Sequence record: MW876471 | DNA from: Escherichia phage P762 | Length of the DNA: 38,954 bases | Direction: 5' to 3' (one strand) | Shown here: one piece after another, positions 1,943 through 38,954 of the stretch | How positions within the stretch are numbered: the stretch's first letter is position 1 | How the letters are laid out: each line of letters opens with the position of its first letter | Made by a program: the position numbers and the translations under genes | The notes under the pieces: generated by a model | Told to the model about the DNA's origin: nothing | Seen by the model: the letters and a program-made list of their open reading frames with translations, nothing else | Databases searched by the model: none

Positions 1943-2533
1943 TTAGCTATGACCTGTAGGTGTGCCTTTAGCAGCACTAATCGGTGCAGAACCACCGGAG
2001 CTAGATGCCCCAGCAATAGACTTACCAGCAGCATACCCTTGCATCCCGGCGCTAGCAACATTAAGTAGTGCATGGGCCAGTGGGCTGGTCTTTATGATTT
2101 TACCTTGACCACGGATAGCAGACTTGGTGTTCTCAATGTTGGCGATACGGTTCCCGAAGATAGCCGCATAGTCGCGGTTGTAACTTTCGGTAATCCCTGC
2201 TCGCTCCTTGACTGTATCTCCTTCGACCTGACGTTCAATCCTGTCCATAGAGTTCCCTTCCAGACCGGACTCAGCAACCGCAGCTCGGACCATACCCTGA
2301 TTGCGGATGCCGTTAAGCGTTGTCTCTGTAAGTTCAGCCATCTGCTGCTCCTTCAGGTCTCGCTCCTGCATCCTCAGGTTGGCGTCAGAGTAGTTCATCT
2401 GCTTAATCATCTCTTGAGCCTGTCGGTTCTGAGCGTCAATTGCTGCACCTTCGGCCTTGGCCTGCTGGGATGCGGACATAGTGGCCCCGGCTACAGCCAT
2501 GATACCCATGCCGATACTTACGGGTTCACACAT
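1943..2533 (-). CDS. gp14: internal virion protein gp14
   Basis: 196-aa ORF, same size and position as T7 gp14, between gp13 and gp15. Confidence 0.8.
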   Translation of the reverse strand: MCEPVSIGMGIMAVAGATMSASQQAKAEGAAIDAQNRQAQEMIKQMNYSDANLRMQERDLKEQQMAELTETTLNGIRNQGMVRAAVAESGLEGNSMDRIERQVEGDTVKERAGITESYNRDYAAIFGNRIANIENTKSAIRGQGKIIKTSPLAHALLNVASAGMQGYAAGKSIAGASSSGGSAPISAAKGTPTGHS

Positions 2534-2979
2534 ACGTCCTCCTTAGAGATAGTGAATAATTGAAAATGCTCACCAGTTACCGGGCTGATAGTCCAATCAT
2601 CATGGAACTTAGCCCCAAGCAACTTCAAGAATTTAATGTGAGACTTATTGCCTGACCACACGTAGTTCCAGATGGTCCCGTATTGGTCTAACATTAAGTC
2701 CCTGTATCGTGCAATGTGTAGTCCGAACTCTCGCTTCTCAGCCTTGGACAGACGGGAGACAAGACGGGAGGTAACGAACCAGACGTTATCACCTTGGTTT
2801 CCACCATAGGCGTATACTGTCCCCAGAGCATCGACCAAAACCACAGATGACGGAGTGAGGTGAGACATCAGGACAGGCTTCAAGTCTCTCCGTGGGTCAT
2901 TCGCCATCAGCTCATTAACGTCATCTATAGCAATTTCGAAGGACAATACATCCTGTTCAGTAGCTTTACGAATATACAT
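2518..2979 (-). CDS. gp13: internal virion protein gp13
   Basis: 153-aa ORF directly downstream of a phage promoter, in the gene 13 position between gp12 and gp14. Confidence 0.75.
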   Translation of the reverse strand: MYIRKATEQDVLSFEIAIDDVNELMANDPRRDLKPVLMSHLTPSSVVLVDALGTVYAYGGNQGDNVWFVTSRLVSRLSKAEKREFGLHIARYRDLMLDQYGTIWNYVWSGNKSHIKFLKLLGAKFHDDWTISPVTGEHFQLFTISKEDVCVNP

Positions 2980-3018
2980 AAAGTCTCCTCTTAAAGTATT
3001 ATAACTTAAAGGGCCTAT

Positions 3019-3041
3019 AGTCCCTATAGTGATAGTTAAGG
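3019..3041 (-). promoter_or_regulatory. phage RNAP promoter (phi13 position)
   Basis: minus-strand CTTAACTATCACTATAGGGA (plus strand tccctatagtgatagttaag), one of 11 copies of the same motif. Confidence 0.75.
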
Positions 3042-3065
3042 TAAATCTATAGGCCCTTCAATAAG

Positions 3066-5423
3066 TTAGACGGAACGAGCTTTCTTAGCGTATGACGCCT
3101 CCCAGCCACACCCAACGATGGACACTGGGGTAGGATAATCTGACTCTAAGGTTAGGCTCGTGGTTAATGCGTTACCATTCATAGCAAAGCGATACTGTCC
3201 ATCCCCAATGTTGGTAGTCCCGATGGTTTGCTGACCAAGTGTGTACCCGTTAAAGGTGTTCACGAACTCCCGCTCACCGTTTCTGACAATGAGCCTCAGA
3301 GCGCCAGTGTCTTTGTAGTTTACCCAAGCCCGACGAAGCTGTAGACGACCAGTGTCTTCAGACTTAGTTCCACTATCATCTTCAATCTTAATCAGGAACC
3401 GTGAGAACTTGTAGGACATCAGATAGGAACGTCCGATGAACACTGTGCGTCCTGACCAATCGCCGTTTAGGGTAACCACGGTAGAGATACTGGTCAAGTC
3501 CCCAAGGTCCACATAAGCACCCTGACTGTCAATCAGATAGTACCGACCGGGAGACGGAGCGTTGCCACCATAAGCAGCAGCAATGTCAACCGTAGTCTTA
3601 TAGGTGTCAGCATTATATGAGCCAATTGGAATTACCATAGACACCTTGGAGTCAATGTGTAGTCTATACGGCTCTGACGGGAAGTCAGTTGCCTCCTTGA
3701 TGAACTTAAGGTGCTCAATGTCTACCCCTCCTTGGTGCTGACGAATGATGAACATGGTAGAGCCAATAGAAGCAGACGCCAGAATCTTATCGTCTTTAGG
3801 GAACTCCCAGTGTGACCAAGAGGCTTGAAGCTGTACGCCGTCCTTAAACAAGAATTTGTAGATGTAGATTCGGTTGTATGCACCTGTAGAGTTGACGCAG
3901 ATGTAGTTCTCAGTCCCTGTACCTTGAATATCAAACACCCCGTTAGGGATGTAGGACAATACGTGACCAGTTGTATCATCGGCATCCTTCACATCAGACA
4001 CATCAGCTACAGCGAAGTATCGCTTAATGCTGGTGAATGACCCACGGGGGGCTGAGAAGAAGACTGAGCGTCCTACAGCGAACGGTCTGGCATTGTCACC
4101 TAAGGCAAACTCTGAGCCTACATCAAGCTGGATAGACTTCGAGGTAAGGACCCCAGAGCTTGTCATCACGAACTGAACCTCATCCGACCAAAGTAGTAGC
4201 TGCTCGCTAAACGGAACGGCATACTTAAGGATTGAGATACGAGGGTTACTTACAGCTACATCAATAGGGTCATCATCGCTCAGTGTCGCCACACTCTTAG
4301 GGAAGAACGCAAAGTAGCTGGCTGAACGGCTCATTATTACGTTCTCACCCGACAAGAACCCAAGTCTGTTCCTGTAGAAGAACACATCATTAATCGCAGC
4401 ATCCACGAAGCTAGGCATAGGGTTTGTGTCATCGTTACCAGCACCACGCTTGGACCAATCCAGAGTCTTAAACTCAAAGGAGCCATCAGGCTGTCTGACC
4501 AGAGCATGTGGCATTGTGGTGACATCAAAACCAGTGACAACTCCCGGCTCCACTGTCTCCTTCCACGTCTTAGTGTTGGAGTCATACATCACGTAGTATT
4601 CATCGGCGCTACTGTTTGTCTCACCTTGAATCTTAATGATATACCCATTAGGAGCGGCAAGAGGCAGTTTAGAGATTGTCTGCACAGTGTCTAGGACTGG
4701 GCTTATTAGCTGGTTAGCGTAGCCATCCTCCGTCTCCACTGAGTTAATATCGGTCCCTGAAGGAGCTGTGATTAGCAGGAAGCCAGACCCAAGGTCGAAC
4801 GTGAAGTCAGGATAGGCCTGAACAAGAAGGTCTCTCAGAGCTGCACCAATGGCTTGAGCGTCCACCTTAGGTGGGTCATTCTCGGCATCATTACCTGCTG
4901 GTAGCTTATGCGAGACCTTAACTCCACCGTTGATTCCCACCTTAAGGGTTCGACCATACTGTCCACCACGCAGGTTAATTAAAGCTCGTGCTTTGCGGTT
5001 ATAACCAGAGTGTGACTTCTCGCTTCCACCTTTGACGACAACCTTACGGTTAACGACGAACGTATAGTCTGCTACGGTAACGACACGGATGTCATCTCGT
5101 GGGTTGGAGGACTTAACGTAATCTACCGCACCTGACACTGAGTATTGATTGCCACTCAAGTCAACTACCTGAATGTTGGACCCATTGAACACGATGTAAT
5201 ACTGCTCATGCTCGTCACGGTTAATCAGGTGGAACTTAGGGTTGCTCCCAACGTCGATGTTAAGACGTCGCTTGAAGACTGTAGGTGGGCGCTTCTGGAG
5301 GCCATCACTCTCGGATGACCAGCAGTTAACCTGTGCCTCGCCTTGGTCTGAGAACCTCAGTATATCAGGCTGCTGGCTAATGCCACCTTTAAGGTTCTTG
5401 ATTGATTGAGTAATTAGTGGCAT
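3066..5423 (-). CDS. gp12: tail tubular protein B (gp12)
   Basis: 785-aa ORF, size and position as T7 gp12 (794 aa), downstream of gp11. Confidence 0.9.
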   Translation of the reverse strand: MPLITQSIKNLKGGISQQPDILRFSDQGEAQVNCWSSESDGLQKRPPTVFKRRLNIDVGSNPKFHLINRDEHEQYYIVFNGSNIQVVDLSGNQYSVSGAVDYVKSSNPRDDIRVVTVADYTFVVNRKVVVKGGSEKSHSGYNRKARALINLRGGQYGRTLKVGINGGVKVSHKLPAGNDAENDPPKVDAQAIGAALRDLLVQAYPDFTFDLGSGFLLITAPSGTDINSVETEDGYANQLISPVLDTVQTISKLPLAAPNGYIIKIQGETNSSADEYYVMYDSNTKTWKETVEPGVVTGFDVTTMPHALVRQPDGSFEFKTLDWSKRGAGNDDTNPMPSFVDAAINDVFFYRNRLGFLSGENVIMSRSASYFAFFPKSVATLSDDDPIDVAVSNPRISILKYAVPFSEQLLLWSDEVQFVMTSSGVLTSKSIQLDVGSEFALGDNARPFAVGRSVFFSAPRGSFTSIKRYFAVADVSDVKDADDTTGHVLSYIPNGVFDIQGTGTENYICVNSTGAYNRIYIYKFLFKDGVQLQASWSHWEFPKDDKILASASIGSTMFIIRQHQGGVDIEHLKFIKEATDFPSEPYRLHIDSKVSMVIPIGSYNADTYKTTVDIAAAYGGNAPSPGRYYLIDSQGAYVDLGDLTSISTVVTLNGDWSGRTVFIGRSYLMSYKFSRFLIKIEDDSGTKSEDTGRLQLRRAWVNYKDTGALRLIVRNGEREFVNTFNGYTLGQQTIGTTNIGDGQYRFAMNGNALTTSLTLESDYPTPVSIVGCGWEASYAKKARSV

Positions 5424-5660: not shown

Positions 5661-6226
5661 TAGTCCCTCCCGATGTCGGACATCATGTTGTAGCGACCCG
5701 TGTCCATCTCGTACTCCATAACCTGCTGATAGAGTTCTGCTTCCTGCTCACGAAGGTATAGCTCTGACTCTGGGCTACCGAAGAACTTAGCATTGAACTC
5801 ACGGCTAGCTTTAGTGACGATGTAGTCCCTGAAGACAACAGGCATCTCAGCGAATGGTTTCATCTCCACAAGCTCTACCGTGATAGGGTCGGTGAAAGTG
5901 GTTGACTGAGTGGATAGGTCGTACAGGTATCCACCCATGTTGCTGTAGTAGCTGGTGGCCCCCGCGGTCATTACACGAAGGTATGACGGCAGGAATCGAA
6001 TCCTATTGTCTTGGACATCAGGTGTCAGGACGGCAGCTTCGTTGATATTAAAGTTCCAGCCTTTAGCTTGGACCTGACGATTGACACGATGCAGTATACG
6101 TTGAGCGTTAGAGACGTCAGCGTTCCCCTCGTCAAGCTGTAGGACTGCTGGTTCACCGATAGCAGCTAACATATCGTTGATGGCATCTAAGTCATCGTTA
6201 GCATTCAGTGGAATGTATTGAGCCAT
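5660..6226 (-). CDS. gp11: tail tubular protein A (gp11)
   Basis: 188-aa ORF; AINDMLAAIGEP, IVTKASREFN and MEYEMDTGRYNM blocks match T7 gp11. Confidence 0.9.
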   Translation of the reverse strand: MAQYIPLNANDDLDAINDMLAAIGEPAVLQLDEGNADVSNAQRILHRVNRQVQAKGWNFNINEAAVLTPDVQDNRIRFLPSYLRVMTAGATSYYSNMGGYLYDLSTQSTTFTDPITVELVEMKPFAEMPVVFRDYIVTKASREFNAKFFGSPESELYLREQEAELYQQVMEYEMDTGRYNMMSDIGRD

Positions 6227-13113: not shown

Positions 13114-15284
13114 TAGTGACACTCCTTCCACGTTGGTCCAATCTTACCTTCGGTATCAAGGACACATTTAAAGTTATAGAACTCACCCACCTTACGCATA
13201 GCAAGTTGAGCAATCTTGACGACTTCTTCGGCAATCTCCTGAGTACGACACGCAATCTGCAATTCGTCATGCACCCAAGCCATGTACGCAAAGTCACCTT
13301 CCCAGCCGTGAACATACCCGGCCTCTTCAAGCATACGTTCAGTCTCGACAATCCAGTGCTTACAGACTACCGCACCATCGCCTTGAAGTAAGGCGTTCAG
13401 TGCTGAGTGCGGCGACCGGATGTGGATACGGCGACCATCAAGTCCACGTAACCAACGGCGTTTCCACTTGACGATGTTCTCTCCATCCACCCACTTAGAG
13501 TCTGAGATTAACGTATTACTCACAGCTTCCCTTAGGTCTTTGATGGCTGGTGTACCCTCAATGAATTTCTTCATGAGAGCTGACCCTTCCTTCTTACCAC
13601 CGCCTACTATCAGTCCAATCTTAGCTGCCCCTGCACCATACAGGAACGCATAGATGAACGTCTTAGCGTTGTTACGGAAAGCATCATGGTCGTGGTTCGA
13701 CTTATCGCGGGGGACGTTAGGTGCTAACCCAGCGTTTACTGCGTTGGCCCAGTGGATGTCACCTTCGACCACAGTCTTCGCATAGGCACCACCATCAAAC
13801 GGAGCCGCTCGGTTCCCCAGACAACGAAGCTCAAGACCTGAGGCATCCACACCCACTTGAATCCAAGGGTCTGGCTTACCATCCGTCTTGTTCCAAGCTG
13901 CACCGAAAGCACCACGGCAAATCTCGCCATATGGAGCACCGTTAGCCGGGACTTGAGCCATGTTTGGTGAACTATGGGTCGCACGTCCGGTTACTGCACC
14001 GCATGGGTTGATTGAACCGTGCATACGTCCGTCTGGACCTACAAGTTTCAACCATGCGTTCTTACCTTCAGCCGCCTGACCGATTCGCTTCTGGACTACC
14101 AGATACTCACGAACCAGCTCTACGCAAGCCTGAGCCTCTGCGTCTGGCAACTTAACGTGTTCTAACGTCTCGTCATCGACTACAGGTTTCCCGGTGTCAG
14201 TGAAGTCCACAGGCTCCCAGCCACGCTCCATCAATACTTTCGCTAAGTGGTCTCCGCTTCCCGGATTAAACTCAACGTAAGTGATAGGTGTGAACGGTGC
14301 TCCCTCCATCGTGTCTCGTGAGTCGAACTCGCAAGGCTCCAGACCTAAGCGTTGAGCTTTGTTCTTCGGCTTCTTAAAGATGCCACCGACCTTAGGATAC
14401 ACGACTCGCGGATACTTCGGAAGGTCCTTGCCTGTCCGTGGGTGCTTGAAGAACTCCTTGCCTCCATTTGGTGCGTACCAGCTACCGAAAGTCGAACGCA
14501 GCTTGTCCAGCAGCTCTGCACGTTTGACGGTGAGTTCACGATATAAGCCTTCGACCATCTCGGTGTTCATCGGATAGCCGTTACGTTCCATCTTCGCACA
14601 GGTCCACGCAGCATCATGTTCCAGACGCAACGCATAAATCTGGTCGAAAGCGAACTGTTCAGACTGGAAGTAATACTTGTCATTCAGGAACTTCTTGAAC
14701 AACGCCAGTGTGACCACAACGTCTTGAACGTTATAGTCCAGCATCTCCTGAGACGGGAACAACCATTCGTCCCCAGCCTTATATTCGATACCTTCAGCCT
14801 TGCACTTGGCAACGTAATCGTGTTTGTACTCACCTTTCATCTCACCGAGACGATAACCCCAAGCCTCAAGAGACTGACGTCCCATCATAATAGGTGGCAG
14901 ACGACCAGCTTTCACTGCGCCCATGTCTGAGAACTTAATGTTTGGATACATCAAGCGGCCCAGCACCAAGGTATCAATCATCTTGTGTTTCGGGAAGTTA
15001 AAGCGTTTCCCAAAGTACAGACGCTTCAGCTTGTCAATAGCCGGGACGTCATAGTTGATACCGTTGTGGAATACCAGAATACCATCAGGTGATGCGGCAA
15101 TCTCTTCCACCTTCTGCACATACTCTTTGAAGCCGCCGACGATACCGACCATCGGAGCTACCCCATACTTAAGGGTCTCATTCGACTCGGCGTTAATCAG
15201 GACCCCACAGTGAAACTGGGAGACTGTATCAAGGAGACCGTTGGTCTCGATGTCAGAACCCCAGATACTCTTAAGGTCAAACAT
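13113..15284 (-). CDS. gp5: DNA polymerase gp5
   Basis: long blocks identical to T7 gp5 (HNGxxYDVPA, LEAWGYRLGEMKGEYK, YNVQDVVVT, KYPRxxxPKVGGIFKKPKNKAQR, GAVTGRATH, AKTFIYxFLYGAG, YMAWVHDE); start set at internal ATG MFDLKSIWGSDIETN with GGAGGA SD, not the track start at 15320. Confidence 0.97.
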   Translation of the reverse strand: MFDLKSIWGSDIETNGLLDTVSQFHCGVLINAESNETLKYGVAPMVGIVGGFKEYVQKVEEIAASPDGILVFHNGINYDVPAIDKLKRLYFGKRFNFPKHKMIDTLVLGRLMYPNIKFSDMGAVKAGRLPPIMMGRQSLEAWGYRLGEMKGEYKHDYVAKCKAEGIEYKAGDEWLFPSQEMLDYNVQDVVVTLALFKKFLNDKYYFQSEQFAFDQIYALRLEHDAAWTCAKMERNGYPMNTEMVEGLYRELTVKRAELLDKLRSTFGSWYAPNGGKEFFKHPRTGKDLPKYPRVVYPKVGGIFKKPKNKAQRLGLEPCEFDSRDTMEGAPFTPITYVEFNPGSGDHLAKVLMERGWEPVDFTDTGKPVVDDETLEHVKLPDAEAQACVELVREYLVVQKRIGQAAEGKNAWLKLVGPDGRMHGSINPCGAVTGRATHSSPNMAQVPANGAPYGEICRGAFGAAWNKTDGKPDPWIQVGVDASGLELRCLGNRAAPFDGGAYAKTVVEGDIHWANAVNAGLAPNVPRDKSNHDHDAFRNNAKTFIYAFLYGAGAAKIGLIVGGGKKEGSALMKKFIEGTPAIKDLREAVSNTLISDSKWVDGENIVKWKRRWLRGLDGRRIHIRSPHSALNALLQGDGAVVCKHWIVETERMLEEAGYVHGWEGDFAYMAWVHDELQIACRTQEIAEEVVKIAQLAMRKVGEFYNFKCVLDTEGKIGPTWKECH

Positions 15285-18170: not shown

Positions 18171-18630
18171 TGTACACCACCAGCTCTACTACGACCAGAT
18201 TCAGATGTGACTGGAAGCGCTGTGCGTCAGTCGTGTGCATCTGGAGCAACTTGTGGTTGAAGACGTGAGAGTTGCTAATCTTCACGTACACTTCGTCAGG
18301 CTTACCGTGGACGATGAACGTCTGGCCTACACCAATCTTGTTGATGGTCAGGACTTCACGTTTAACGGTGACAGGAGGGACGCTTGAGGCTGGCAGGACT
18401 TGAGGTTTATCCTCTACGATTTCCTCAAGATGTCCTTTTAAAACCCACGCCCCCCACATACCGTCAGGCTGAGTGTCATAACCTGCTGCTCCGTGTTTGT
18501 AGGCTCCACGCTCAGTGGATTCCACCAGAACAAGTCCAGGTGATGGTGCAGGGTCTTTCGCACATTTCGTAACGATAGTACCTTTAGGCCACCCGTAGCC
18601 ACTAACCTTAAGTCTATATTTCTTGCTCAT
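18160..18630 (-). CDS. hypothetical protein (156 aa) inserted between endonuclease I and lysozyme
   Basis: AAGGAG SD; ATG overlaps gp3 stop (TAATG), end overlaps gp3.5 start; no T7 counterpart at this position. Confidence 0.75.
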   Translation of the reverse strand: MSKKYRLKVSGYGWPKGTIVTKCAKDPAPSPGLVLVESTERGAYKHGAAGYDTQPDGMWGAWVLKGHLEEIVEDKPQVLPASSVPPVTVKREVLTINKIGVGQTFIVHGKPDEVYVKISNSHVFNHKLLQMHTTDAQRFQSHLNLVVVELVVYNGK

Positions 18631-25911: not shown

Positions 25912-26304
25912 TTACTTGCATATCAGTGGGTTAGCGTGCAGATGACTGAAGTCACCGTGAGTCGTGTGCTTGATGGTTGACCGTTGGTCTATCGCCTTCC
26001 AGCCTGAGACCAGAAGTTTACCATCGTCGGTGATTGGTCGTCCACCATACGCCAGCCACATCAGCTCGGACTTATGGCCCTCTGCCATGAGTCGTGCCCG
26101 CAGTACACGGTCGCGCTCCTGCTGTTGACGTGCGGTGTATGACGAGTGGCGATGCACATAATCGGTCTTGTTCCCGGTCTTCTCCCAGTAGTTGCGACCG
26201 CGAGAGTCCGTGCCGACGTACTTCCACTCTACGCCGTTCTTATCAGTGAATGTGCGAAGCGATATGATTGAGTCCATTGCGTGTCCCAGATTTGACATAT
26301 TCAT
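25912..26304 (-). CDS. hypothetical early protein (130 aa) where T7 has the gp0.7 kinase
   Basis: ORF with GGGAG SD; ATG overlaps upstream gene stop (TAATG); no kinase motifs. Confidence 0.7.
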   Translation of the reverse strand: MNMSNLGHAMDSIISLRTFTDKNGVEWKYVGTDSRGRNYWEKTGNKTDYVHRHSSYTARQQQERDRVLRARLMAEGHKSELMWLAYGGRPITDDGKLLVSGWKAIDQRSTIKHTTHGDFSHLHANPLICK

Positions 26305-28058: not shown

Positions 28059-28304
28059 TGTGGTCTCAAACTTTTGGTCCAAAACTCATCGTCCCTCCTT
28101 AGGAGCCAGCTACTGTAGGTCAAGGACCGTAGGTCTAAGACCATCGGATGACGACCAGTGAACCAATCAGTAGGTAGACCAGAAGTGAGAGCCTGAATGG
28201 TGTTACCTAAAGTCCTTGACTACAGTAGCTAAGGTCAGTAGAGTGAGTCTTTATCCACGTACTGACCTTAGGTCTTCCGCTCATGAATCGTTACCATGAT
28301 TGCG

Positions 28305-34588: not shown

Positions 34589-37500
34589 CCTTGATGTGGA
34601 TACCTTGCTCCTCAAACGTTCCCAGTAGCAACTTCTGGGTAATTGGGTCGTTCGGAACCAGTTCACGGAACGTATTATACATCCCGGTCATGTAGTCACG
34701 CTCGTTAACACGAGTATCAGCCTTGAGGTAGCCAGCCAAGTTGTAAGCCGAAGCGCCAACGTTAGCAGCATATCCGAAAGCTGGGACCTGCTCCAAGAAG
34801 TTACCAACAACATTCATCACAGGGTCACTTGTAGCCGCACCATATGTGATAGCACGTTCAGGCTTCTCTGTAGGTGAACGAGGTAGGATAGACGAGCGGA
34901 GCATCTTAGTGTCCTCATACCCAGCGATACCGCCAAGAATATTAGCGACCCCAAGTGGTCCACCTAGATGTGAACTACGGGACAGAGCCGCATAGCCGAT
35001 CATCGTCGGGTTCAGAGCTTGCTTGAGATACTCACGGTCTCGACCATCCTGCATAGCGTAAGCCTTGATGTGAGCCTGAGCCATGTAGTAGATACCAGCA
35101 AGACCCATAGACATCACAGTGGACAGGGCGGCGTCCATCGCTCGGTTATTCTTCGTGGCGTTATAGAAGGTTCGCATGGTTCGCCCATTGATGGACTTGA
35201 TGACGAAGTTCTTAAACTGAAGGACAGTCTTAGCGAGAGGACTATAAGCCTTGGCGTCCATGTTTGACAGCTTGTGGGGCCGGAGTAACGTTTCGTCAGC
35301 GATGGTGTCACCCATACGCCACAGGTCCATAGCCCTTGGGTCCTGACTAAACGCCTTCTTATCCTTGATCGTGTACTTCCCGTCTGGACCACGAGTCACT
35401 GACTCACGGATTAATGACTTAATGCCCTTCCACTGCTCGTCAGAGATACCAGCGGTCTTCAGCCAGCGGTCATCGAACCGACGCTTACTACCAGTCAGAC
35501 TATGCTCCACTATGTCAGACAGGAAGCCTTGACGTCCAGCATCTAACAGGTAGTTTGTCGTACCGTTGAGGACTTTAGTTAACGGAGAGCGTACTGCAAG
35601 TTCACCAGTGTAATACTTGGCAGTCCCCAGAGCTGTAGCCGTACCACGACCGAGGTCACTGTAAGACCGCAGACGGTCAATGACATCCTGTTTAGACGGA
35701 CGGATTGAGTCATCCAGTTCCTTACCGAATATAACATTGTGCAGGTCCTTAATCTCTGAGGCCCCTACCTTCTTGTTACGGAAGGCTAGGTCACGGAACA
35801 TCGGGACTCCATGTAGTAGCGCACGAACGTTACCACGAGCCAGCATACCACCAATCTCCGTTAAGTTCTGAATACCCATGTAGGCATTCTTAGCGAAGAA
35901 CGATAGGTCTGTCATTGTGCGCAGAACGGTATTGAAGGCTGCATCGTCGGCACCATCACGTCGAGCACGACCGGTGAGAATCTTCAAGGTGTCACGTAAG
36001 GTAGATACCTCACCTTTCAACTTACCGTCATCCCCAGCCTTGTTCATCATGGTCTCAACCAAGTCCTTCATGTCCTTCGTGGTCTTTCCTGTACCAGCCA
36101 TGATAGCTATGTCCCCATTAACTCGACGGTTGTACGCCGGAACAATCTTGTCCATGTCCCACTCACGCAGGTTGTTGACACTGAAGGTCTGACCATTAGG
36201 TAGGACGATTGACATATCGCTATCGAACAGGTTACGAGCCTCAAGGAAGCTGTTGTTCTCCAGACCAACCAGACCGTTGATGTTCTCTTCCATTACGGAT
36301 GAGCGTTCGAACTGCTCGGTGTGAGAGATACCGTAAGCCTTATCGTTGGCGTACTTATCGACCGCAGCCGCAAGTCCTTCTGGAGTCAACGTAGGGTCAG
36401 CCTCTAAGAGTGCCTCGTCCACGCGTTTCTTTACTTCAGGTCGAGACGCATAGCTGGTCAACCATGACTTCTTGATGGCCTCCTGCAACGCCTCTGGACT
36501 CCCAAGCTCCTTGATGTACAGCTCCTTCATCTGTTTGCTATACACATGAGGGACGTAGGTTCCCTTGAAGCGGCTACCCGGAAAGATAGACTGAGCGTCT
36601 GGCCGACCAAACATAGCTGGGTTCTCCATCATCTCACGCTTGGCGTCAAACTGGTTCTTCAGCAGGTCATAGACTTTCAGTTCTCCCGGAGTCAGTTCAG
36701 CCTTCAGGTTTCCGCTACCATCTTCGATAGCCATAGACACACGCTGGTAGATGTCCTGACGGAATGCGCCAGAGTCTCGCCAGAATGCTGTCTGGAAGTA
36801 CGGGTCCTTTAGTGCCTCAGTAACCGCATCGTCGATGTCATTGTAGAACCGATGGTCCACAGCACGAAGTCTCTCGAATACGTCTGACGCAGTGGTCCCG
36901 ATTTTACCTGAAGCACCAGACTGCATACCAGTTGGTGAACGCACTAAGTCAGCAGCGACTCCACGAATCTCAGGGTTCTCAGACCGAAGCAGCTTCAGGC
37001 CAATCTCAGTCAGACCACCAAGGTTCACACCAGCAGCGGCACGTTCAGGCTCAATCACTTCGTCAAAGACCTGACGTGTCTTAGGGTTCAGAGGGTTCTC
37101 ACCAATCAGGATTGAACCATCTTCAAGTCGTACACTACCCGGCTCGTTAGGAACGTCAGCGAACTTAACGCCTTGATGACTAAAGGTCTGCTCACCTTCC
37201 TGAATAGGGAGACGAGACAGGTCCTGACCATCAACGTTACGAGCGGTCTCACGAGCTTCCAGACGTGTAGCTGGACCAGCAAACTCATTAGTGTTGCGGC
37301 CCAAGGCTCTTCCTAGTCCATCAGCGATAGCAGTCATACCCCCACCGAAGAGAGCACCACCAAGGATAGCCTCAGCCACATGAGCATCACCACCAGCCAC
37401 TGATGTACGGGCCATCTCTGACACACCAGCAAGTGCTCCAGATTGAGCAGCCACGGTGAACATCTTGTTGACCAGCTTACCACCTTTGCCAACCTGTCCA

Positions 37501-38475: not shown

Positions 38476-38954
38476 TTACTCCTTACCAATTAGTGCGTTT
38501 GCGATACCCTCCAGTGAGACGTCATTGTACATCCCACCGCGCTTCTCGATATTGGCCTCTCGGTCAGCTCGACGTTTATCACCAGCAGCTTTAGTCCCGA
38601 CGATACGCGCTCGCTTGTTAGCGTCACGTTCTGCCTGAGCGTATGCGGCATCTTGTGCCTTCTGCTGTTGTTCGCGGTAGAGTTTACCTACAATTTCTTT
38701 ATCGTATCGAATACGAATAGTCCCTGTAGCGTCTTGGAGGAAGATAGAGCCGTTCTGTTCAACAACGGACAACTGAGAGTTCACTACCCAAGGGTTAGCC
38801 TTAATGAGTTGCTGACGAGCTGTGTCGATAATGTCTCGACCAACCTGCCACGACTCTGGGTTATCCCCGACCATAAGCTGGTGTTTGGACACCATGCCTA
38901 TGGACTTACCGTCAGAACCTTCAGACTGGAACGTTACGGTGTTCTCATTCAGCC
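38476..38954 (-). CDS. gp15: internal virion protein gp15, 3' part (same CDS as 1..1931)
   Basis: C-terminal translation ..SWQVGRDII..ANPWVVN.QL...GSIFL.DATG.IRIRYDKE matches the T7 gp15 C-terminus; upstream part lies beyond the window end. Confidence 0.85.
   Translation of the reverse strand, partial: LNENTVTFQSEGSDGKSIGMVSKHQLMVGDNPESWQVGRDIIDTARQQLIKANPWVVNSQLSVVEQNGSIFLQDATGTIRIRYDKEIVGKLYREQQQKAQDAAYAQAERDANKRARIVGTKAAGDKRRADREANIEKRGGMYNDVSLEGIANALIGKE
38828..38954. repeat. 127-bp exact duplicate of window positions 1..127 (circular-assembly overlap)
   Basis: end sequence ataatgtctcgaccaacctgccacgactctggg...ttctcattcagcc is identical to the first 127 bases; lies inside the gp15 coding sequence. 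Confidence 0.9.

Follow-up and report, generated by a model that had tools for sequence, protein, structure and literature searches.

A Conserved Hairpin over the phi13 Promoter of Kayfunavirus, Probable Counterpart of the R13 Element of T7-Group Phages

The gap between genes 12 and 13 of Escherichia phage P762 (MW876471) contains an inverted repeat that encloses the phi13 promoter, and RNA spanning this gap folds into a hairpin of exceptional stability. The arrangement is conserved throughout the genus Kayfunavirus, and other genera of Studiervirinae have a hairpin in the same position. The explanation that best accounts for these observations, in which we place moderate confidence, is that the repeat constitutes the Kayfunavirus form of the R13 hairpin of T7-group phages, probably functioning as a processing site for RNase III and as a stability element in the read-through mRNA of genes 11 and 12. 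The hairpin is an expected feature of the T7 group presented in a slightly different layout: The layout is new, the kind is known.

Genomic Context of the Gene 12-13 Gap

The window, by which we mean the whole stretch of 38,954 bases that was analysed, is a circularly permuted genome of Kayfunavirus (K1F-like Studiervirinae) in reverse-complemented orientation, with its genes on the minus strand. The 127 nt at its start (1-127) are identical to the 127 nt at its end (38828-38954), in the manner of the circular overlaps left by assemblers; therefore, the window corresponds to the complete genome, permuted and reverse-complemented, with a size of ~38.8 kb (about 38,827 unique bases). Every phage promoter and all the long ORFs near the hairpin lie on the minus strand. 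A megablast search with the region 2500-3600 matched 221 phage records, mostly of Kayfunavirus, in which the flanking genes are annotated as tail tubular protein B and internal virion protein A. The gap itself measures 86 nt, and the features in and around it are as follows.

6289-6252, minus strand: Tphi-like terminator after the capsid gene, with a 17-bp stem closed by a 4-nt loop and then eight consecutive U
3066-5423, minus strand: gene 12 (tail tubular protein B, 785 aa)
3068-3066, minus strand: stop codon of gene 12, UAA, inside the lower stem of the hairpin
3064-3068, minus strand: 5' strand of the lower stem, UAACU, containing the gene 12 stop codon (from MFE structures)
3063-3061, minus strand: 3-nt bulge between the lower stem and the main helix
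3047-3061, minus strand: 5' (upstream) arm, UUGAAGGGCCUAUAG, of which the exact 12-mer (3058-3047) corresponds to promoter positions -34 to -23
3021-3046, minus strand: 26-nt apical loop, promoter positions -22 to +4
3019-3041, minus strand: phi13 promoter from -17 to +6, CCTTAACTATCACTATA followed by GGGACT, with +1 at 3024; one of 11 consensus matches
3013-3030, minus strand: tandem 9-nt copies of the promoter core, ACTATAGGG (3030-3022) and ACTATAGGC (3021-3013), read from the sequence
3006-3020, minus strand: 3' (downstream) arm, CUAUAGGCCCUUUAA, of which the exact 12-mer (3020-3009) corresponds to promoter positions +5 to +16
3002-3006, minus strand: 3' strand of the lower stem, AGUUA (from MFE structures and pair probabilities)
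2990-2985, minus strand: Shine-Dalgarno sequence of gene 13, GAGGAG, outside the hairpin
2518-2979, minus strand: gene 13, with its ATG at 2979

Promoters of the CTAAACTATCACTATAGGGA type number 11 in the window and include the one with +1 at 3024. They were retrieved by searching for ACTATCACTATAGGGA with up to 3 mismatches, which returned 11 matches, all on the minus strand, against 0.35 expected; their consensus reads (A/C)CT(A/T)AACTATCACTATA followed by GG(G/A). Phage promoters are absent between phi10 (7574) and phi13 (3024), and for this reason genes 11 and 12 can be made only from RNA that reads through Tphi. Such read-through RNA must exist, since neither gene has a promoter of its own downstream of the terminator, and it necessarily includes both arms of the phi13 hairpin. 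Transcripts initiated at phi13 carry the 3' arm without the 5' arm, and their whole leader is unstructured (z = +0.4). A stem-loop at the very 5' terminus of these transcripts (GGGACUAUAGGCCC), considered as a possible element for their stabilisation, was rejected with a folding energy of -3.6 kcal/mol and a z-score of -0.3.

Anatomy and Stability of the Hairpin

Reading the plus strand, AAGGGCCTATAG occurs at 3009-3020 and its exact reverse complement, CTATAGGCCCTT, at 3047-3058. The first-pass annotation had rightly described these 12-bp arms as exact reverse complements, although its coordinates for the first arm, 3008-3019, were one base off. Its further proposals, that the arms bracket phi13 in the gene 12-13 gap and that read-through RNA would form a hairpin with the promoter in its loop, are borne out by the position of the two arms on either side of the +1 at 3024 and by the predicted fold, which has an MFE of -25.8 kcal/mol and a z-score of -4.3, with none of 200 shuffles equally stable. 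Within a context of 421 nt, the 12 arm pairs have a probability of 0.98-1.0 and those of the lower stem of 0.67-0.86.

Repeats of this kind are rare in the genome. The 12-mer of the arm, allowing no more than one mismatch, is found at two places only in the window, compared with 0.11 expected by chance, and perfect inverted repeats of at least 12 bp with arms no more than 70 nt apart are two in the 38,954 bases, compared with a mean of 0.1 in dinucleotide shuffles. In RNA of the transcribed strand the helix grows to 15 bp (3061-3047 with 3020-3006) via a G.U pair, an extension available on the minus strand only. It is the second-longest uninterrupted helix on that strand, the longest being the stem of Tphi. 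The full hairpin extends from 3068 to 3002 and contains a helix of ~19-20 bp, made of 14-15 bp, the 3-nt bulge and the 5-bp lower stem; the top of its 3' arm coincides with the second copy of the duplicated 9-nt promoter core. An Rfam scan of the whole window gave no family match.

How exceptional is this structure with respect to the rest of the genome? Ranking 80-nt windows by raw MFE turned out to be uninformative because G+C-rich coding windows dominate the list, and it was replaced by a scan for contiguous helices together with z-scores computed for each promoter, folded from -50 to +25. By this measure phi13 is the sole significantly structured promoter among the 11 of the window (z = -4.56, the next best being -1.95). 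The same folds in T7 rank phi13 first among 17 promoters (z = -5.62).

Hairpins over phi13 in Other Genera and the R13 Site

The gene 12-13 gaps of 17 further phages of Studiervirinae were folded, and a hairpin over phi13 was present in every enterobacterial genus sampled: in T7, 3A_8767, phiYeO3-12, the K11-like phages WTZ1 and TH50, K10PH82C1 and CR8, as well as in Berlinvirus (P483, BSP161, CarlSpitteler) and in Helsettvirus fPS-53. Across these genera the z-scores of the gap range from -1.0 (CR8) to -7.3, all but that of CR8 being -2.4 or lower. Their 3' arm consists of the core and start region of the promoter itself, while the 5' arm tracks the promoter and initially transcribed sequence of each phage. 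The arms are UUCUCCCUGUGGUGG and UCACUAUAGGGAGAA in T7, with three G.U pairs, and GGUGUGCUC and GGGCACACU in the K11-like phages. Since the 5' arm follows the promoter of its own phage in each case, the structure has been kept while the sequence has changed. When the 198-nt gap of Ghunavirus BIM BV-99 was folded, a stretch lying upstream paired with the annotated phi13 promoter in a hairpin. Upstream of a promoter-like sequence, the Dickeya phage Dagda (Aarhusvirus) has a short hairpin rich in G+C; in the Vibrio phage JSF35, a promoter-like sequence opens the gap and a hairpin follows downstream; two Pseudomonas phages, with a gap of 25-26 nt devoid of a promoter, have no hairpin there. Among the sampled genera, only Kayfunavirus has the whole promoter in the loop.

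The position of these hairpins is that of a known element. Papers on T7 locate a cleavage site of RNase III next to the promoter, between genes 12 and 13, and refer to this site, R13, as weak. The record of phiYeO3-12 (NC_001271) has a stem_loop at 26209-26246, annotated as 'putative RNase III site R13', which overlaps the promoter phi13 (26223-26245). On the strength of these sources, the original suggestion that T7 has R13 at the equivalent position holds; the layout is different, for the 3' arm of the T7 hairpin is the promoter core.

The window's hairpin resembles T7 R13 in several respects. It lies in the gene 12-13 gap on the transcribed strand (3068-3002) and overlaps phi13, so that in both phages only read-through RNA carries the two arms, the 5' arm being absent from phi13-initiated RNA. 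Its main helix has about 15 bp, as in T7, and in either case no other promoter region of the genome is as significantly structured as that of phi13, the other promoters of the window having z-scores of -1.95 or weaker. The difference is in the pairing register. In T7 R13, the promoter itself (-8 to +7) forms the 3' arm and pairs with an upstream anti-promoter partner, with three G.U pairs and a 17-nt loop. In the window, on the other hand, the whole promoter (-17 to +4) falls within the 26-nt loop, the 3' arm is not the core and +1 region but the segment from +5 to +16, which includes the duplicated core copy, and the arms are perfect Watson-Crick complements. Hence, the layout differs and the position does not. 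The putative R13 of phiYeO3-12, itself a prediction, shares with the window its location and its overlap with phi13; its hairpin of 14-15 bp pairs in the T7-type register, the promoter core forming the 3' arm. Of the hairpins compared here, only T7 R13 (Dunn & Studier 1983) is known to be cut by RNase III, with a cleavage coordinate of 27281; cleavage is predicted for Kayfunavirus.

In evolutionary terms, a hairpin over phi13 has been maintained across Studiervirinae by means of different pairing registers, which argues for selection on its function. T7 grows without RNase III. The argument for function is made despite this and despite the weakness of T7 R13.

Relationship with Canonical RNase III Sites

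Four canonical RNase III hairpins of the T7 type (UAGACUCAAGGUCAU...GUGGCCUUUAUGAUUA) are present in the window.

31880-31821, minus strand: canonical RNase III hairpin
26667-26608, minus strand: canonical RNase III hairpin
22353-22294, minus strand: canonical RNase III hairpin
15354-15297, minus strand: canonical RNase III hairpin

A covariance model built from these four sites gives them 70-78 bits and recovers seven sites of T7 at 22-55 bits (849-903, 1424-1481, 3097-3151, 5844-5900, 13850-13905, 18498-18576 and 36813-36869), plus five positions in K1F. The seven matches in T7 are presumably R0.3, R0.5, R1, R1.1, R4.7, R6.5 and R18.5 (Dunn & Studier 1983). The phi13 hairpin is missed by the model, the best scores within 2900-3200 being 8.3 bits on the plus strand, which is the wrong one, and 5.3 bits on the minus strand; T7 R13 is likewise unmatched, with 1.2 bits or less. 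Membership of the canonical family is therefore rejected for the phi13 hairpin, which groups with R13, itself atypical.

Some traits are nevertheless common to the phi13 hairpin and the canonical sites: an intergenic position on the transcribed strand, about two helical turns of stem with unpaired interruptions, and a similar helix base, AAGG(G/U)C... paired with ...G(G/C)CCUU. The MFE structure of the phi13 hairpin, with 14 bp, a 3-nt bulge and then 5 bp, amounts to the interrupted helix of ~20 bp that characterises the canonical sites. These sites have an 11-bp upper stem closed by a loop of 3-5 nt and a two-sided internal loop, unlike the phi13 hairpin, which has the 26-nt loop and a bulge on one side only.

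Could the RNA hairpin then act without any involvement of RNase III? It might form a structural boundary in the read-through mRNA, either as a barrier to 3'-exonucleases that stabilises the gene 11-12 message after endonucleolytic cuts of another origin, or as an insulator that keeps the folding of the gene 13 leader independent. A stable and conserved fold would suit this role, and so would the lack of a match with the canonical model, the weak cutting of the T7 equivalent and a loop that, with its 26 nt, is atypical for the RNase III substrates of this genome. We consider the possibility rather unlikely, because the positional equivalents in T7 and phiYeO3-12 are treated as RNase III sites and the role itself largely overlaps what the R13 explanation places downstream of the cleavage step. 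Moreover, a helix of ~20 bp with a bulge fits the size of RNase III substrates.

The R13 explanation, which we prefer, would work in the following way. The hairpin exists only in transcripts entering from gene 12, namely those that start at phi9 and phi10 and read through Tphi, and is most likely a substrate of the host RNase III. Cleavage, which we regard as likely, would separate the message of genes 11 and 12 from that for gene 13 onward, and would leave on the upstream RNA a 3'-terminal stem that may hinder exonucleases and thereby affect the stability of the mRNA. By analogy with T7 R13, the cut would be expected close to the helix base, on its 3' side, at ~3008-3001. In the literature searched, we found no paper linking Kayfunavirus with RNase III.

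Conservation within Kayfunavirus

K1F has arms identical to those of the window, and the region is present, with a coverage of 80% or more, in about 220 Kayfunavirus records. The first-pass annotation had named lack of conservation in related phages as an outcome that would speak against its reading of the hairpin; the arms are conserved, the element being present in K1F and all these records. Conversely, the perfect 12 bp emphasised there are real in the window and do not represent the conserved unit. In an alignment of 22 gap sequences, 16 of which are distinct, the 74-nt element shows zero indels and 94% of the cells are paired on the proposed structure (98.8% in the lower stem), yet the perfect 12-bp arms occur in only 7 of the 16 distinct sequences. 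In the other nine, position 3056 is U instead of G without compensation, producing a mismatch at the third pair; position 3057 is U, also uncompensated, in two of the 16. The result is a 1x1 or 2x2 internal mismatch at 3056/3057 in nine of 16 relatives, frequent enough that the perfect 12 bp must be seen as one form of a helix in which a small internal mismatch is common.

No compensatory change was found at any pair within Kayfunavirus (22 sequences, 16 distinct). The lack of compensatory pairs in the covariation within the genus is due to the invariance of the core: Neither the 9-bp core (GGCCUAUAG/CUAUAGGCC) nor any position of the 3' arm changes in the alignment of 16 sequences. Both of the one-sided changes that preserve pairing yield a G.U on the transcribed strand. 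One further sequence, L055 (Enterobacter phage 04_vB_Eclo_IJM, OP272493.1), was left out of the alignment because its many indels in the gap suggest assembly errors. These small indels set it apart from all its relatives and are accompanied by fragmented ORF calls, so the record is probably a low-quality assembly.

The sample was then widened with two scans for related loci and with exact-pattern scans for CACTATAGGGACTATAG in viral and metagenome contigs. These provided few additional Kayfunavirus sequences, none of which differs in the 3' arm, plus new variants of the 5' arm, GAUGGGCC and one with an altered closing G; most of the metagenome matches were unrelated. The two arms are asymmetric in their variation (L003-L025, L040, L066 and L116 in our numbering of relatives): The 3' arm, CTATAGGCCCTT, is constant, and the 5' arm varies at 3056, at 3057 and in one case at 3047. 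That the 3' arm is conserved beyond the needs of pairing hints at a second constraint, possibly acting on the segment from +5 to +16 of the phi13 transcript. The loop has an invariant length of 26 nt in the relatives, its sequence being the most variable part of the element, particularly in the specificity region of the promoter (-12 to -8), of which at least four versions are found within the same arms. Variants of this region that differ from that of the window (3019-3041) are present in L003, L018 and L052 (ACACCCTCACTATAGGGA), in L040 (TTACCCTCACTATAGGGA) and in L066 (TAACACTCACTATAGGGA). The presence of at least four phi13 specificity regions within Kayfunavirus implies that the RNA polymerase and its promoters have diverged together.

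The behaviour of the 3' arm bears upon an explanation of a different nature, in which the RNA hairpin would be incidental. The segment from +5 to +16 might be constrained in its own right, either as initially transcribed sequence or as part of the 5' end of the phi13 mRNA; or else the inverted repeat might act in duplex DNA, as a cruciform or a protein-binding site that tunes phi13. An invariant 3' arm in all Kayfunavirus seen, facing a 5' arm that varies without compensation, and a loop of fixed length would be understandable on such grounds, and the perfect Watson-Crick complementarity of the window's arms makes a DNA cruciform possible. We hold this explanation to be improbable. The 5'-terminal fold of phi13-initiated RNA is no better than that of shuffled sequences, as mentioned above, and the segment +5 to +16 differs at the remaining 10 promoters of the same genome. 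Furthermore, the core of the 5' arm, GGCCTATAG, is nearly invariant even though it lies outside the promoter, the only changes being a substitution giving a G.U pair in L013 and a terminal G to T in L116. In other genera the hairpins rely on several G.U pairs, which rules out their formation in DNA. Within Kayfunavirus, too, the observed changes give G.U pairs on the transcribed strand only. The extension of the helix by G.U on the minus strand alone, the G.U variants in relatives and the three G.U pairs of T7, all read from sequences, indicate that the effect is at the level of RNA.

That the hairpin serves the phage or host RNA polymerase as a terminator, attenuator or pause signal where gene 12 ends appears very unlikely, in spite of the stable hairpin directly following the stop codon and of the U-containing stretch UUUAAGUUAU that comes thereafter. 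A scan of 2800-3300 gave no terminator-like site, and the anatomy also leads to rejection: The loop has 26 nt, and the only run of U, a UUU, is part of the helix, in contrast with the compact stem and eight U residues of the real terminator of this genome, Tphi. A chance palindrome can practically be discarded, being effectively refuted by conservation of the element in about 220 genomes; short inverted repeats are indeed likelier here, since the promoter core contains CTATAG, which is its own reverse complement and recurs three times within 40 nt, but shuffles lead one to expect only 0.1 perfect 12-bp inverted repeats per genome, the fold has z-scores of -4.3 to -4.6, and analogous hairpins exist in other genera.

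Origin of the Kayfunavirus Layout

If the Kayfunavirus hairpin is a form of R13, how did its layout arise? The tandem copies of the promoter core suggest that a duplication of 9 nt shifted the pairing register in this genus. An upstream arm of the T7 type must co-vary with the promoter with which it pairs, and the duplication would remove this coupling. One may thus envisage, as a speculative scenario that we consider doubtful, that the core duplication (ACTATAGGG immediately followed by ACTATAGGC) moved the 3' arm of R13 off the promoter, leaving promoter specificity free to change, and that ribosomes terminating at the stop codon in the lower stem could gate the folding or the cleavage of the hairpin. 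Identical arms that enclose at least four promoter specificities, around a loop fixed at 26 nt, are consistent with decoupling by duplication.

Implications for K1F-Type Phages

None of five Kayfunavirus records inspected has the phi13 promoter or the hairpin marked in its annotation. The phi13 hairpin is a regulatory feature missing from these annotations, and K1F-type phages serve in phage therapy directed at the K1 capsule and in phage engineering. When genomes are refactored or promoters swapped, the region 3068-3002 should be treated as a single folded unit. For specialists, the hairpin represents expected biology and opens no new question.

Other Repeats in the Genome

Two stem-loops of 11 bp, at 7577-7541 and 17461-17435 on the minus strand, start at or beside the +1 of two other promoters. 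One of them is formed by ATAGGGAGACC and GGTTTCCCTAT and resembles the stem-loop in the phi10 leader of T7; the other is formed by AGGGATGGGAC and GTCCTGTCCCT. The only other perfect 12-bp inverted repeat in the window is located at 28229-28240 and 28260-28271 (CTAAGGTCAGTA and TACTGACCTTAG, with a spacing of 19 nt), and lies near what comparison with K1F coordinates suggests to be the physical end of the genome.
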